This document shows positions 7,901-53,150 of a stretch of 64,000 nt of DNA, in pieces. The position numbers and the translations under genes were made by a program. Origin of the DNA: Ginglymostoma cirratum (Eukaryota); the NCBI GenBank assembly GCA_024137785.1, contig JAHRHZ010000001.1, positions 3,947,075 through 4,011,074 of the forward strand, in the 5' to 3' direction. Every line of letters starts with the position of its first letter. The stretch's first letter is position 1. The notes below the pieces were generated by a model that saw only the letters and a list, made by a program, of their open reading frames with translations, was not told where the DNA came from and searched no databases.

Positions 7901-10900
7901 ACTCAATACAATACCCTCTCGATACAGCTTCTTGGGACATGGCCCTCCCTCAGTGGCACCGAATGTGCCTGCCACCCTGGGTAAAGTACCAATAATCATG
8001 GGTTGTGTGAAGGCTCGGCCACCTCACAAGTCAATCTCCTGCCAAGCCTCCAAGCGAGATCGACACGGTTTTTTTTTCCTTACACCAGGACTGGGGATGC
8101 GACAGGTGTCGATGCCATCGGTGACCCTAGGATCAGTACAACCCAGAACCCGCGTCCAGCTGCCTGAATAATCGTGGGAGCCGACTGGCAAATTAGTCAA
8201 CACGGGACCTTTTCCAGATACAGGACGCGACAACACGAGTAAAGGGTACTCCTGGTCAAAATGCGAATGACCTCACGACAAGCTGCTAAACAAAGGTTTT
8301 CAAATTTAGTCAAATAGTCATTTATTTCCAATCAAACAATATTAAGCCATCAGATTTACATACAGTCTATATTCACAGTTAAATTGGAGTCTCCATTAAT
8401 ATTTTATATCAGAAATATAATGGCAATTCATATTACGTATGTGCAGAATACCATTAGATTTCATCAAGATTTAACCATTTGTGCCTCCCTAGATCATATT
8501 TTCACAAAAATAACCCAAAAATAGAAACATCATGCAACGTTCTGTGTGGGTATTATCCGGACGGTCCACCTGGCAGAATACGGTTAACACAATAAACACA
8601 ACAGTGGGCCGAGGTCTAGGTGCATAGCACTGAGCACAAACTGATGTCAGGAAGCATTTCCTCAAAGTGACCAATACCTGGAATGCTCTTCTCACTGAGA
8701 CGAGGCAAAATCTCTCCTGTTAGTCAAAAAGTCGTTAAACATTTACTGGGAAGTCTGAGGTGGTAGGAAAGGGGGACAGAAAGGACGGGGAACGAAAAGC
8801 AAAAAATTCCTAGGAACTTACTCTTAACTTGGTGCATCAAGACGAAATCCAGACTCACTTTTCTCACATCTAATTGCCAATCTTAATACAAACCATTCAT
8901 ACCAACTGGCAGTTAGGAAGACATCAAATTTTGTGCATCACTGATTGTGAAAGTGGGCATCTGTATGCAGATAGCATTTGAGACAAAGGTACGATTATGC
9001 AAATGAACTAAAATCACAGGTGAATAAATGGTGCTTTACCACACTGTCACAAGCAGCAAGGTAGATTAGACTAATCCTCAGCTGTCATCGGTATCCTGCC
9101 ACAGGATGAGATCCTGGCTCTTTTATAGAACATTTTAGTCAGGGAGCCACAAACCACTCGAAAAACAATGTCAACAAAGAATCTTGGAGCAAACTTCGGA
9201 CCTTCTGCTGGTCACAAACACCTTGCTAAAACAAAAACCAGGAAAATTGTCCGAGCAATTCACGTAAGGAATATAAGCGAAGTCATTCCAGAAGCTACAG
9301 ATACAAAGTCCACTGCAGAACTTAAGAGGGGAAAAAGATTCTTGCTTGGGAAACAAGCATTAAGAGGCCAGGGTTAAATGCAGTCTAAGCTGTCACCGCT
9401 GATCAAATTCCAGTGCAGTCTTGATGGATCTATTCCAATTTCCATACAATATTTATACACAAATAAGTAGAAGTCGTCATGCAGGTAAAGCAGGCTATGG
9501 GTTATATTTATGAAGTTATGACCCATGTGCATTTAAGCACAGATATCTAAGTTCTTTTTAAGTTTGATAAATTCTTTTACTTTTTTTGAAACTTGGAATG
9601 TCAGCACCCACCTGCCAGCTAACACGAGAAGAAAGATTCTTCACAATCAAGCGGTAGTCAGTACGAACAGGAGGTCCATATCTGAAATTTCAAGAAAGGT
9701 AACTTACTGAAAGCAACAAAATATCAATATCACAATAGCTGCATCACATATATTGCTATATATGCAACTCCAACACTAAAGATACAAGAACAGAAGGTTG
9801 AGATTTAACACTAATCCATGTCGAATCCATTACCTCCACTGGAGGGATACACCGGCCTTGGGCTCTGCCTTACGGCTCTGGATTGGGGCAATAAGGACCA
9901 AAGTTTGCACTCAGGCATTGCTGCCAAGGCTTTCATTTAATGATCCATTGTTATATGCTCTTAAGATAGTGGCAAGCTTTTACAACCACACTCCATGGTC
10001 AATTGCCTGATGGGCCAAAGTCTTGGAGCTTTCTGCCTAACAACAAAGAACAGTAACTATAATTCCAAGCCAGAACGATGAGACACTTGGGAGCTGTGGT
10101 TCAAAAGAGAAGGGAAAACAGACTAGGAAAATAAATTGACAGTTAATATAAAAAGGGAATCCAAATGCCTTCTATAGACATTTAAATAATAACAGAGCAG
10201 CAAAAGGGGTGCGGCTGAAAAGGGACCAAATATAGCTTGAAAGAGTAGGTGGTGACTAAACAAACAAGATTCTGAGGGGTAGAGATAAAAGGTACTGCAG
10301 ATGCTGGAGAATCTGAGATAACAAGCGTGGGGCTGGATGAACACAGCAGGTCAAGCAGCATCATAGGAGCAGGAAAACTTCACGTTTCGGGCCTAGACCC
10401 TTCATCAGAAATTTCTGATGAAGGGTCTNNNNNNNNNNNNNNNNNNNNNNNNNNNNNNNNNNNNNNNNNNNNNNNNNNNNNNNNNNNNNNNNNNNNNNNN
10501 NNNNNNNNNNNNNNNNNNNNNNNNNNNNNNNNNNNNNNNNNNNNNNNNNNNNNNNNNNNNNNNNNNNNNNNNNNNNNNNNNNNNNNNNNNNNNNNNNNNN
10601 NNNNNNNNNNNNNNNNNNNNNNNNNNNNNNNNNNNNNNNNNNNNNNNNNNNNNNNNNNNNNNNNNNNNNNNNNNNNNNNNNNNNNNNNNNNNNNNNNNNN
10701 NNNNNNNNNNNNNNNNNNNNNNNNNNNNNNNNNNNNNNNNNNNNNNNNNNNNNNNNNNNNNNNNNNNNNNNNNNNNNNNNNNNNNNNNNNNNNNNNNNNN
10801 NNNNNNNNNNNNNNNNNNNNNNNNNNNNCAGATGCTGCCAGACCTGCTGAGCTTTTCCAGCAACTTTGTTTTTGTTCCTGATTTACAGCATCCGCAGTTC

Positions 10901-21574: not shown

Positions 21575-23648
21575 ACAACAAGGTGTAGAGCTGGATGAAC
21601 ACAGCAGGCCAAGCAGCATCAGAGGAGCAGGAAGGCTGACGTTTCGGGCCTAGATCCTTCTTCAGAAATGGGAGAGGGGAAAGGGGTTCTGAAATAAATA
21701 GGGAGAGAGGGGGAGGCAGATAGAAGATGGATAGAGGAGAAGGTAGGTGGAGAGGAGACAGACTGGTCAAAGAGGCAGGAAAGGTGAGGAGTTAGGGAGG
21801 AGATAGGTCAGTCCAGGGAGGATGGACAGGTCAAGGGGGCGGGATGAGGTTAGTAGGTAGGAGATGGGGTGTGGCTTGAGGTGGGAGGAAGGACAGGCTA
21901 GGGAGGCGGGAATGAGCTGGGCTGGTTTTGGGATGTGGTAGGGGAAGGGGAGATTTTGAAGCCTGTGAAATCCACAATCCCCAAGCCTCCGCTTGGTTTT
22001 GCCGATGTAGAGGAGGCCACAACGGGAACAGCAGATGCAGTATACCACGTTAGCAGATATGCAGGTGAACTTGATGTGGAAAGTCTTCTTGGGGCCTGGG
22101 ATGGGTGAGGGGGAAGGTGTAGGGGCAAGTGTAGCACTTCCTGCGGTTGCAGGGAAAAGTGCCGGGTGTTGTGGGGCTGGAGGGGAGTGTGGAGCAGACA
22201 AGGGAGTCACGGAGAGAGTGGTCCCTCCGGAAAGCAGATAAGGGTGGGGAGGGAAAAATGTCTTTGGTGGTGGGGTCGGATTGCAGGTGGTGGAAGTGAG
22301 GATGAGGAGGATTCTGTTTTGGTTGTTATTGCAGGAAGGGGGTGTGAGGGATGCGTTGTGGGAAATGCGGGAGACACGGTCAAGGGTGTTCTCGACCACT
22401 GAGGGGGGGATGTTGCAGTCCTTGAAAAACGAGAACATCTGAGATGTACGGGAGTGGAATGCCTCATCCTGGGAGCAGATGCAACGGAGGCTAAGGAGTT
22501 GGGGATAGGGGATGGCATTTTTGCAGGAAGGTGGGTGGGAGGAAGTGTATTCTAGGTAGCTGTGGGAGTCGGTGGGCTTGAAATGGATATCGGTTGTCAG
22601 AGATGGAAACAGTGAGGTCCAGGAAGGAGAGAGAGGTATTAGAACTGGTCCAGGTGAACTTAAGGTTGGGGTAGAAGGTGTTGGTGAAGTGGGTGAACTG
22701 TTTGAGCTCCTCATTGGAGCATGAGGCGGCGCCGATACATTTGTCAATGTAACGGAGGAAGAGGTGGGGTTTAGGGCCAGTGTAGGTACGGAAGAGGGAT
22801 TGTTCCACGTAACCTACAAAGAGGCATAGCGTGGGCCCATGCTGGTACCTTTGGCCACCCCACTAGTCCGTAGGAAGTGGGAGGAATTGAAAGAGAAGTT
22901 GTTGAGGGTGAGGATTAGTTCAGCTAAGCAGATGAGGGTGTCAGTAGAGGGGGACTGGTCGGGCCTGCGGGACAGGAAGAAGCGGAGGGCCTTTTGGCCA
23001 TCTGTATGGGGAATGCAGGTGTATAGGGACTGGACGTCCATGGTAAAGATGAGGTATTGGGGACCGGGGAATTGGAAGTTCTGGAGGAGGTGGATGGCGT
23101 GGGTGGTGTCACGGACGTAGGTAGAGAGTTCCTGGACCAAGGGGGAGAAAATGGATTCGAGATAGGTGGAGATAAGTTCGGTGGGGCAGGAGCAGGCGGA
23201 GACAATGCGTCTACCAGGGCATTCAGGTTTGTGGATTTTGAGAAGGAGATAGAAGCGGGTGGTGCGGGGTTGGGGAACGATGAGTTTGGAGGCTGTGGGT
23301 GGGAGGTCACCTGAGGTGATGAGGTTGTGGATGGTTTGGGAGATGATGGTTTGGTGGTCAGGGGTGGGGTCATGATCAAGGGGGCGGTAGGAGGAGGTGT
23401 CGGAGAGTTGGCGTCTGGCCTCGGCGATGTGGAGGTCAGTGCGCCATACTACAACTGCGCCTCCCTTGTCCGCAGGTTTTATGGTGAGGTTGGGATTGGA
23501 ACGGAGGGAGTGGAGTGCTGCACGTTCTGCAGTGGAGAGGTTGAGGTGATTGATGTCTCGATGGCAGTTGGAGATGAAGAGGTCGAGGGAGGGTAGGAGG
23601 CCTTGGGGTGGTGTCCAGGAGGAGGGGGTGTGTTGGAGGCAGGAGAAG
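21575..23648 (-). mobile_element. Penelope-like retroelement (Neptune-type), 5'-truncated and frameshifted: RT, GIY-YIG endonuclease and 3' end with hammerhead motif
   Basis: IKPADKGGAVVVW, FYLLLKIHK, FTMDVQSLYTCIPH, GVAKGTSMGP, LRYIDK (catalytic YIDD altered), FLDL, KPTDSHSYLEYTSSHP, NVVYCICCSRCGLLYIGKT across ORFs 22814-23686, 22491-22808 and 21767-22747. Confidence 0.92.
21638..21665 (-). ncRNA. Minimal type-I hammerhead ribozyme core in the Penelope 3' end
   Basis: CTGAAGA-AGGATCTAGGCCC-GAAAC-GTC on the minus strand. Confidence 0.65.
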
Positions 23649-23850
23649 GTTTCCTCCGGGTGCTCCAGTTTCCTCCCACAGTCCAAAGATGTGCAGGTTA
23701 GGGTGGATTGGCCATGGGAAATTGCCCATAGGGATGTGTAGATTAGGTGGGTTATAGGGGGATGGGTCTGGGTGGGATGCTGTGAGGTTCGGTGTGGACT
23801 TGTTGGGCCGAAGGGCCTGTTTCCACACTGTAGAGATTTTACGATTCTAG
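23649..23850 (+). mobile_element. V-SINE (HE1-like) 3' half abutting the Penelope copy
   Basis: GTTTCCTCCGGGTGCTCCAGTTTCCTCCCACAGTCCAAAGATGTGCAGG and tail. Confidence 0.8.
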
Positions 23851-23926
23851 GATTGCTGCTTTTTCCCCATGCTTTCTGACCCCTTTAGCCTCACGCTGGG
23901 CTATTAATGCAGAGACCAAAATAACA

Positions 23927-30990: not shown

Positions 30991-31141
30991 GCTTCAAATT
31001 GTCAACTATACAAATGTTTCTCATTAAAAGAAAGCAAAAATACAACAGATGCCGGAGATCTGAAAGAATAATTAAAAAATGCTGGAGAGACGTAACTGGT
31101 CTGGCAGCGTCAGTGGAGACAGAACACAGTAAACGTTTGAG

Positions 31142-31381
31142 AGATAAAAGGTACTGCAGATGCTGGAGAATCCGAGATAACAAGCTGTGGGGCTGGATGA
31201 ACACAGCAGGTCAAGCAGCATCATAGGACCAGGAAAACTTGACGTTTTGGGCCTAGACCCTTCATCAGAAAAAATGATGAAGGGTTTTTTCTGATGAAGG
31301 GTTTAGGCCCGAAACGTCAAGTTTTCCTGCTCCTATGATGCTGCCTGACCTGCTGTGTTCATCCAGCCCCACGCTTGTTGT
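31142..31381. mobile_element. Palindromic Penelope-derived short element with a hammerhead core in each arm; 17-bp TSD
   Basis: About 95-bp inverted arms; plus-strand core CTGATGA-AGGGTTTAGGCCC-GAAAC-GTC at 31291-31318; CACAGTAAACGTTTGAG at 31125-31141 and 31382-31398. Confidence 0.9.
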
Positions 31382-31539
31382 CACAGTAAACGTTTGAGTC
31401 TGGAATTATTAATTCTGCCTCAGGCCTTCAGAAAAATGATCTTGCACTTTAAGGTTATGTTAACCTCACTGGAGAATATAACATCTATTAATTGTCAAAA
31501 AATAAAAAATCTGCATCACAGCTGGTGAGTTTCAGTTAT

Positions 31540-51619: not shown

Positions 51620-53150
51620 ATGCCATTGACCCGTGCGCACGAAGGACCCCGTGTTCATCATTACTTCCCAGGTCCTACTATTTATAGTATAATCCCTTGC
51701 ATTGCTAGTCCTGGCAGTTGCATAATCTCACACTTTTCTAAATTGATTTCCATTTGCCCACTAGTCTACGTGTCTGACTAGTTCGTTGATGATCTCCTGT
51801 AGTTTATGGCTGTCCTGACTATTTACCATCCTACCAATTTTTGTGTCATGTACAGACATCTTGATCATGTGCGCTACATTTGAGCCTGTATCATCAATGT
51901 ACATCACAAACAGCAAAGACCCTAGTAGCTAGTCCTATGCAACTCCACCAGAAATAGCCTCCAGTTGCAGAAATATCTCTGAACTATAATTCTCTACTTA
52001 CTCCCCCTCAGCCAATTTTGGGTCAGTTGGGCCACTTTGTCTTCTTAGTTTCTTAACCATCTGCCAAGAGTGACTTAGATTTTAGCAAGGCTTTCGATTA
52101 TGTAGACCACATCAAATGCATGAGTCTCATCAATACTCCTGGTTACCTCTCAAAAAATAATTGATCATATTTGTCAAACACTATCTTCGTTTAACAAATC
52201 CATGCCAATTCTCCATGATTAATCCGTGAATTTCCAAGTGCAGCAATATTCTGTCCCTCAGAACTATTTCTGATGCAAAAGTAGGGAGGCTATAATTCAG
52301 TTGTACAGTGCATTAATGAGATCACATCTAGTGTACCGTGCACAATATTAGTTTCTTTATTCAAGGAAGGAAGTAAATATAAACCAAAAGAACTATGGAT
52401 GCTGTAAATCAGGAACAAAAACAAAGTTGCTGGAAAAGCTCAGCAGGTCTGGCAGCATCCGTGAAAGAGAAAACCGTTCCGAGGAAGGGTCACCAGACCT
52501 GAAACGTTAACTCTGTTTTCTCCTACTCTTCTAAATTCCAGCAGACGCGTACTTAGCCCATATAATCTTTCCTATGAAAACCCACCCGTTCTAAGTATTA
52601 ATTCAGTAAACTACTTCCAACATATTTACATCCTTGAAGGAGAAAACAGTTCCGAGGAAGGGTCACCAGGCCTGAAACATTAACTCTGTTTTCTCCTTCA
52701 AGGATGTAAATATGTTGGAAGCAGTTTACTGGACTAATACTTAGAATGGGTGGGTTTTCTTAGGAAAGATTATACGGGCTAAGTACGTGTCTGCTGGAAT
52801 TTAGAAGAGTAGGAGTTGACTTAATTTAAACATTCAAGACTCTGGGTAGTTGCGGAAAGGATGTTTCCTGTTGTGGGAGAATCTACTTACTTCAAAACAA
52901 AAATCTCAAATCTATGATGAATGTAAGGATGATTATTTTCCCACAAACATTGTAAATCTTTGAACTTTTTCTCAAAAGATGGGGTTGCAGACTCTACTGT
53001 TTTTAAGCCAGAATTAAATGGGTTCTTGATGAGTAAAGTTGTGGAGGATAGGTGGGAATGTGGAGTAATCAGATCAGCCGTCATCTTATTGGATGGTGGA
53101 GCACGCTGTAGGGGCTCAATGCCCAATCCTGCTCTTAATTTGTATGTTTG
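51620..53150. mobile_element. CR1 fragments (minus 51620-52260; plus 52280-53150, which hosts the composite Penelope insert)
   Basis: Degenerate RT and 3'-end similarity to other CR1 copies. Confidence 0.65.
52381..52699 (+). mobile_element. Composite Penelope-derived insertion: arm, hammerhead-like core, inverted copy of target DNA, second core
   Basis: Cores at 52479 and 52652; 52520-52651 is the inverted complement of 52682-52815; AAGGAAGTAAATAT and AAGGATGTAAATAT at 52367 and 52700. Confidence 0.85.

Follow-up and report, generated by a model that had tools for sequence, protein, structure and literature searches.

The locus at positions 52367–52815 of the window (the 64,000-nucleotide stretch of Ginglymostoma cirratum DNA which we analysed) is most likely the outcome of a DNA repair accident at the small hairpin of a Penelope insertion rather than a working self-cutting RNA element. 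We think it probable that an ordinary Penelope insertion later underwent a DNA-level fold-back and rejoining which duplicated its hammerhead core and inverted its right flank, and one fold-back and one join account for all 173 extra bases. The product is likely to be an inert scar, as it has not spread and folding predictions have the hairpin separating its two cores.

The locus consists of a target-site duplication (TSD), a Penelope arm of 94–96 nt, core 1, the inverted right flank, core 2, a 14-nt short arm and the second TSD, and the coordinates given in a preliminary description of this DNA for the arm, both cores (173 nt apart) and some 115 bp of inverted flank all hold. The 14-bp duplication reported at 52367 and 52700 is also present, with the left copy (52367–52380, forward strand) differing from the right copy (52700–52713, forward strand) by one substitution (13/14 identical). 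The long arm (52381–52476, reverse strand) is the reverse complement of the fixed 3' end of a Penelope pLTR unit with 4/94 differences from the family majority, and meets the core at a junction (52474–52478, forward strand) where the CAG microhomology reads CCG. Core 1 (52476–52519, forward strand; C3 at 52479) is a minimal type I hammerhead motif with a notional cut after 52508, and is followed by the 5-nt microhomology CTCCT (52520–52524, forward strand), the rejoining point, which complements AGGAG at 52811–52815. The inverted copy of right flank 52700–52810 (111 nt) occupies 52525–52635 (reverse strand), with the inverted right TSD at 52622–52635, and continues into an inverted copy of the 14-nt short arm (52636–52649, reverse strand) which provides the fold-back stem. 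This carries the short-arm sequence GAAGGAG and not the long-arm GAAAGAG, with the stem preceding core 2 being of the short-arm type and that preceding core 1 of the long-arm type. Core 2 (52650–52685, forward strand) has a notional cut after 52681 and a helix III altered from ACGT to ACAT, and is followed by the short arm of the original insertion (52686–52699, forward strand; short arms of 3–25 nt ending at the TSD are also found in L006, L015, L017 and L024) and by the right flank (52700–52815, forward strand), which is host repeat and the template of the inverted copy.

The inverted arms (52520–52649 and 52686–52815) are 130 nt each with seven mismatches, three of which are CpG transitions, and enclose a 36-nt loop containing core 2, which bears out the hairpin of about 130 bp with the second core at its tip proposed earlier. 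There is also a direct repeat of 69 nt with a spacing of 173 and 93% identity, and these repeats are far above random expectation (self-BLAST E 1e-103). Both cores read CCGAGGA and so have the U4C change noted in the preliminary description, and they differ from one another at three places (two within the core and one base in the junction). The extra 173 nt is bounded at both ends by microhomology points, and removing 52525–52697 yields a normal member of the Penelope family with a 14-nt short arm; without these bases, the locus is an ordinary short Penelope insertion. We also note that the long arm has C at 52460 where about 95% of the family depth has T, and that this C lengthens the pairing with the right TSD; it may be either an RNA variant which aided priming or the result of arm-to-arm correction.

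The insertion lies within a fragment of a LINE-type repeat which we take to be CR1, and the left flank (52200–52380, forward strand) is collinear with the right flank in paralogues L226–L240. In the paralogues (e.g. L228, L235 and L236) the two flanks are contiguous and the 14-mer is single. A Pfam search of six open stretches from the paralogue loci found no reverse transcriptase (RT) match, and the translation of one paralogue presumably resembles the C-terminus of a LINE RT. The inverted copy shares 94% identity with the adjacent flank compared to 70–84% with 39 other listed genomic matches (40 of 128 candidates scored), and it was therefore copied from this very site.

Among the contigs of four runs, organism A provided one contig identical to 51900–52360, with none of its listed pieces spanning the hairpin, and contigs from organisms B and C (4–7% diverged) reach 22–24 nt into the long arm, which is below the 31-letter bridging rule. 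On the right side the B and C alignments start exactly at 52686, with 32–33 letters unaligned. These contig ends, at lengths under the bridging rule, might fit an insertion and fold-back tip common to those organisms, and no ancestral allele without the rearrangement was seen in these contigs.

A whole-genome search with arm plus core (40 of 2,387 candidates scored and 30 loci read) found that family members are built alike: between two TSDs (10–17 bp long in the sister loci which we read) come a long arm beginning at the element's fixed 3' end, a junction which varies, the core, and a short arm whose length differs from copy to copy. Exact matches to the core 13-mer number 45,528 in the genome, compared to 151 for a control. 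In L027 and L082 the same core is found 262–264 nt downstream of the end of a GIY-YIG-like ORF, and this linkage is seen there and not at the stump in the window; GIY-YIG (PF01541) was matched in all three proteins scanned, with E-values of 3e-4 to 2e-3, matches too weak to reach the curated cut-off. No Rfam match to a hammerhead family was obtained in the window, and the Rfam miRNA matches there were rejected as hairpin-driven and below the gathering score. It should be noted that the two arms of one insertion in L002–L030 often differ at a fixed site (GAAAGAG in the long arm and GAAGGAG in the short), which suggests that a tandem source supplied each arm from a different one of its pLTR copies.

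Short Penelope-like insertions are described as having inverted pLTRs and TSDs in the relevant passages of PMC3846280 and PMC8557442, and minimal type I hammerheads reside in Penelope pLTRs according to those of PMC4209133, with which the layout of the motif here agrees. The locus agrees with a truncated insertion of an EN+ Penelope-like element, and shares the inverted pLTR arms, the TSD (here of 14 bp) and the minimal hammerhead with these insertions, as well as the unpaired base before helix II, the palindromic ACGT helix III and, in longer copies, the GIY-YIG-like ORF end upstream. In contrast, the insertion structures described in those passages have neither an extra direct core nor an inverted target copy, both of which are present here, and our literature search, whose scope was articles rather than supplements, found no inverted copies of target flank at Penelope insertions.

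In the rearrangement we propose, the ordinary insertion (TSD, long arm, hammerhead core, short arm and TSD) would form a small hairpin; the inverted repeat between the arm and short arm is perfect over 10 bp, or about 21 bp with mismatches when the TSD is counted, and has a 36-nt loop. A staggered cut or stalled fork would leave a core on each strand, and the 3' end of the bottom strand would pass the junction, anneal at 52647–52649, the CAG junction, to the short arm of its own strand and be extended by about 115 nt through the TSD into the flank. A join at CTCCT/AGGAG, within the short arm of core 1, would finally connect the extended bottom strand to the top strand. As the loop has been kept on both sides, staggered ends are needed, and these might come from cleavage of a cruciform, from stalling of a fork or from an integration intermediate whose strands had yet to be ligated.

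The yeast local fold-back inversions described in part in PMC11724301 have stems of about 10 bp, a 41-nt loop, extensions of 10 to more than 150 bp and joins with 0–5 bp of microhomology, and the locus has the same dimensions, with a pre-existing short inverted repeat at the fold-back junction (10-bp stem and 36-nt loop) and 111 nt of inverted adjacent DNA joined by the 5-nt microhomology. It differs from yeast in that the inverted repeat is supplied by a retrotransposon, and in that the other side has retained the loop too, giving a direct duplication, for which staggered ends or a sister chromatid are needed. The locus also resembles the four-point model of short-range template switching, as set out in part in PMC5453318, in that both involve one switch, one return and a reverse-complemented middle, and leave inverted plus direct repeats. 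However, the order here is 4-3-1-2, with the return point before the leaving point, which is outside the six orders seen in 794 human–chimp events, and because this order is unseen there, we consider a simple switch within the fork unlikely and have to postulate a staggered break. The preliminary description had suggested template switching or fold-back priming by the Penelope RT onto target DNA or a read-through transcript, and of this, fold-back priming followed by a switch is supported, as it agrees with the geometry, the microhomologies and the similar loci found elsewhere in the genome.

Other loci with inverted flank had been expected if the structure was tied to this element, and we found these in L127, L036, L052 and probably L040, so that of the 80 other tandem-core pairs, between two and four resemble this locus. 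These come from 98 direct core pairs having 70–260 nt between the 13-mers (23 + 28 + 47), of which 81 were examined, including this locus and 30 of the 47. L127 (G000:C16:54664059-54667284) has inverted flank on both sides, with 27 nt on the left and 28 nt on the right and the same junction twice, and its duplicates are 98–100% identical within a diverged element, which may reflect either a very recent event or an assembly error. The two-sided fold-back in L127 is the pattern expected from two hairpin ends which were extended and then joined. L036 has 46–49 nt of inverted flank between cores without a common derived state and probably involved two RNA templates, and L052 has 13 nt of inverted flank, the same junction, and one shared and one private CpG decay. 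L040, with the same junction, three shared CpG decays and an inversion partner within an N gap, is a probable similar fold-back locus. At L041 (G000:C47:12329359-12332570, around 1406–1456 in core orientation) the arm junction carries a 51-nt inverted copy of DNA found 115–165 nt upstream of the insertion, and this looks like a co-insertional templated insertion.

A further 138 loci were fetched (a few of them overlapping), among which only L062 gave a marginal case, of 12 nt. The automated scans for inverted flank were imperfect, as one missed the locus described here, and L052 and L040 were also missed and recognised by eye. On inspection we rejected L079, L136, L166, L199, L214 and L153, which were either separate insertions or palindromic repeats of another kind; L099 and L125, which were longer element sequence; and L141, which belongs to a different family. 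The structure recurs, although rarely, and there seem to be examples made late as well as examples made at integration. In L100, L104, L112, L116 and L118 we also observed that the palindrome tip, comprising junction and core, is directly duplicated with 92–100% identity, and palindrome tips are slippage sites as well. L109 (G000:C77:20814097-20817242) contains a 441-nt inverted duplication which is 99% identical and has a 375-nt spacer with two cores.

The timing of the event was investigated using derived states in the cores. The junction pattern before the cores has eight exact matches genome-wide, two of them at this locus, and it is only in these two that U4C is found. Compared to the family majority, the cores have three derived states in common (U4C and two CpG decays) and two which are private. 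U4C is found in 339 of 14,514 pattern matches (2.3%), and among 99 other listed copies the CpG decay CA occurs in 19 and TG in 26; both decays are found together in 5/99 (counted by eye), which fits the chance expectation, and we therefore regard them as unlinked. The combination of U4C and both decays is found in 26 of the 339 copies, in mixed subfamily backgrounds, and no source subfamily carrying all three core variants was found among the genome core-pattern matches. Tail-to-tail cores, which we assume to be products of one integration (1,515 loci genome-wide), were used as controls; 49 loci were fetched giving 50 pairs, of which 41 passed an ungapped check and 40 remained after one duplicate was removed. 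A CpG decay was shared by 3/40 pairs at site 1, 4/40 at site 2, and 0/40 at both sites, and U4C was shared by 0/40, with two pairs carrying it on one side. Control pairs do share subfamily variants, and decay sharing in the same direction was seen in 18 cells compared to 12.4 expected, with 3/18 being a subfamily variant. L172, a pair selected for U4C, has this change in both tail-to-tail cores, and U4C can therefore be RNA-borne.

As the cores have two CpG decays in common compared to 0/40 controls, we favour DNA-level copying after the insertion had aged, and by our own very rough estimate the shared decays may favour the copying of aged DNA by about 5- to 20-fold. This timing hinges on two hypermutable CpGs. 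The divergences of the long arm (4/94 from the family majority), hairpin arms (7/130) and TSDs (1/14) overlap, and for this reason the event is not clearly datable after the insertion. The shared junction does not date the event either, because fill-in during integration would also copy the junction and many family copies start just before the core.

The same chemistry might instead have occurred during integration, with target-primed cDNAs annealing at CAG and being filled in, and the unligated bottom strand folding back, running into target DNA and rejoining by microhomology, using either a host polymerase or the Penelope RT. We regard this as unlikely, although it is the chief rival: the staggered ends required are exactly those of the integration intermediate, which would also explain why both cores have one junction and how U4C could come from the RNA. 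According to the available part of PMC11167929, a Penelope protein is able in vitro to cleave the two target strands and extend each of them, and fold-backs and inverted duplications are found at the ends of L1 insertions (PMC11702581, in part). These L1 junctions also involve a DNA end self-annealing at a retrotransposon insertion; however, in that account the ends are made by ORF2p at integration and the products are mostly of kilobase scale, whereas the hairpin here is 130 bp and probably later. L036 and L041 appear to be co-insertional, and the overlapping divergences also agree with an early event. Against this, integration-time fold-back requires either that both cores underwent the same CpG decay at each of two sites or that the source RNA carried the two decays, for which the controls (0/40) and the missing source subfamily for the triple offer no precedent. 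The Penelope RT acting during insertion, as suggested in the preliminary description, is not favoured as the cause for the same reason.

A version in which the Penelope RT copied RNA twice, switching between passes onto target DNA or a read-through transcript, seems very improbable to us. The direction of bottom-strand cDNA synthesis agrees with this, Penelope self-priming and capture of host DNA have been proposed in the consulted portion of PMC3846280, and a recurrent RNA start before the core could end both passes alike. However, this rare junction would have to be formed separately in each of the two cDNA passes, which must also have two CpG decays in common, and a read-through transcript would have to originate at, and re-insert into, the same site.

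The preliminary description had also likened the two direct cores to a retrozyme which might excise an RNA of about 173 nt. The notional cuts are 173 nt apart, giving one 173-nt unit plus the 69-nt repeat with two cores, and the unit length is within the 150–450 bp range of non-LTR retrozymes (PMC7229834, in part), which share with the locus two direct, Penelope-derived type I hammerhead motifs. Retrozymes as characterised in the relevant parts of PMC7229834 and bioRxiv 10.64898/2026.07.22.740005 are multi-copy tandem families expressed as circles, whereas the locus is not amplified, has no tandem array family, has minimal mutated cores, and has inverted host flank in a hairpin as its spacer. 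The 173-nt spacer sequence is found at this locus only, with other matches at 70–84% (40 of 128 candidates scored). A single core lacks helix III in its motif layout, and minimal hammerheads have no activity as monomers and low activity as dimers in the section of PMC4209133 concerned with them; U4C considerably lowers activity in vitro but is tolerated by a viroid (PMC3088659, in part), and need not abolish activity. Neither core is an intact canonical core which could fold as a monomer or dimer, given U4C in both, the predicted dimer penalty, and the loss of the ACGT palindrome in core 2, through which helix III of the dimer acquires a C.A mismatch.

In the full transcript the hairpin is predicted at -247.8 kcal/mol, so that core 1 comes to lie at its base and core 2 at its tip, and a constrained dimer is predicted to be 171 kcal/mol above it. 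For transcripts ending at 52690–52700, pairing of the unit ends into a long helix I is predicted, with the dimer 21–29 kcal/mol above the minimum, although these smaller penalties are overstated as the folding model penalises multiway junctions too heavily. The suggestion that the innermost stem acts as helix I needs refining, as only 2 bp and a 2-nt bulge stack on the long stem at the tip; the core has its own helix I (the 4-bp AGTT/AACT), and this tip stacking is predicted to be 2 kcal/mol worse than an open loop. On these predictions, the single copy of the unit, U4C and the helix III mismatch, we would say that the locus is not a retrozyme, and a nascent or working retrozyme which excises and circularises the 173-nt RNA is extremely improbable. 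A broader proposal, which we consider quite improbable, is that Penelope mini-palindromes are recurrent fold-back sites during or after integration, where direct hammerhead cores come to flank captured, inverted host DNA with ends that pair into an extended helix I, and that this is the one-step birth of non-LTR retrozyme monomers, of which the locus would be a stillborn example. An assembly artefact at the palindrome is just as hard to credit as a working retrozyme, for although similar palindromes in the assembly are often at N gaps (8/81 of the tandem pairs examined have an N gap between the cores) or are 100%-identical doubles, here there are seven arm mismatches (three of them CpG transitions), mismatches between the arms being what the preliminary description took to argue against such an error, three core differences, and no N near the locus.

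As read here, the locus is a tidy natural case of fold-back repair seeded by the palindrome of a retrotransposon, and no function is indicated for it. This case suggests that Penelope stumps, of which the genome has tens of thousands, act as rare sites of local rearrangement, with three to five fold-back cases among about 45,500 cores in our partial survey. Should such events take place while the element integrates, they would throw light on second-strand formation and joining, two steps of Penelope transposition which have yet to be resolved, and fold-backs also show a possible origin for tandem hammerheads around captured host DNA.

The window contains further Penelope sequences. Open frames of 348 and 356 aa at 21770–23884 (reverse strand) include a part which we take to resemble the C-terminus of a Penelope RT, and this is probably a longer Penelope copy belonging to the second hammerhead family of the window. 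A second Penelope family, whose CTGATGA core is intact, has palindromic insertions at 31141–31385 and 10285–10428, and the 31.2 kb copy is nested within an older arm of the first family.
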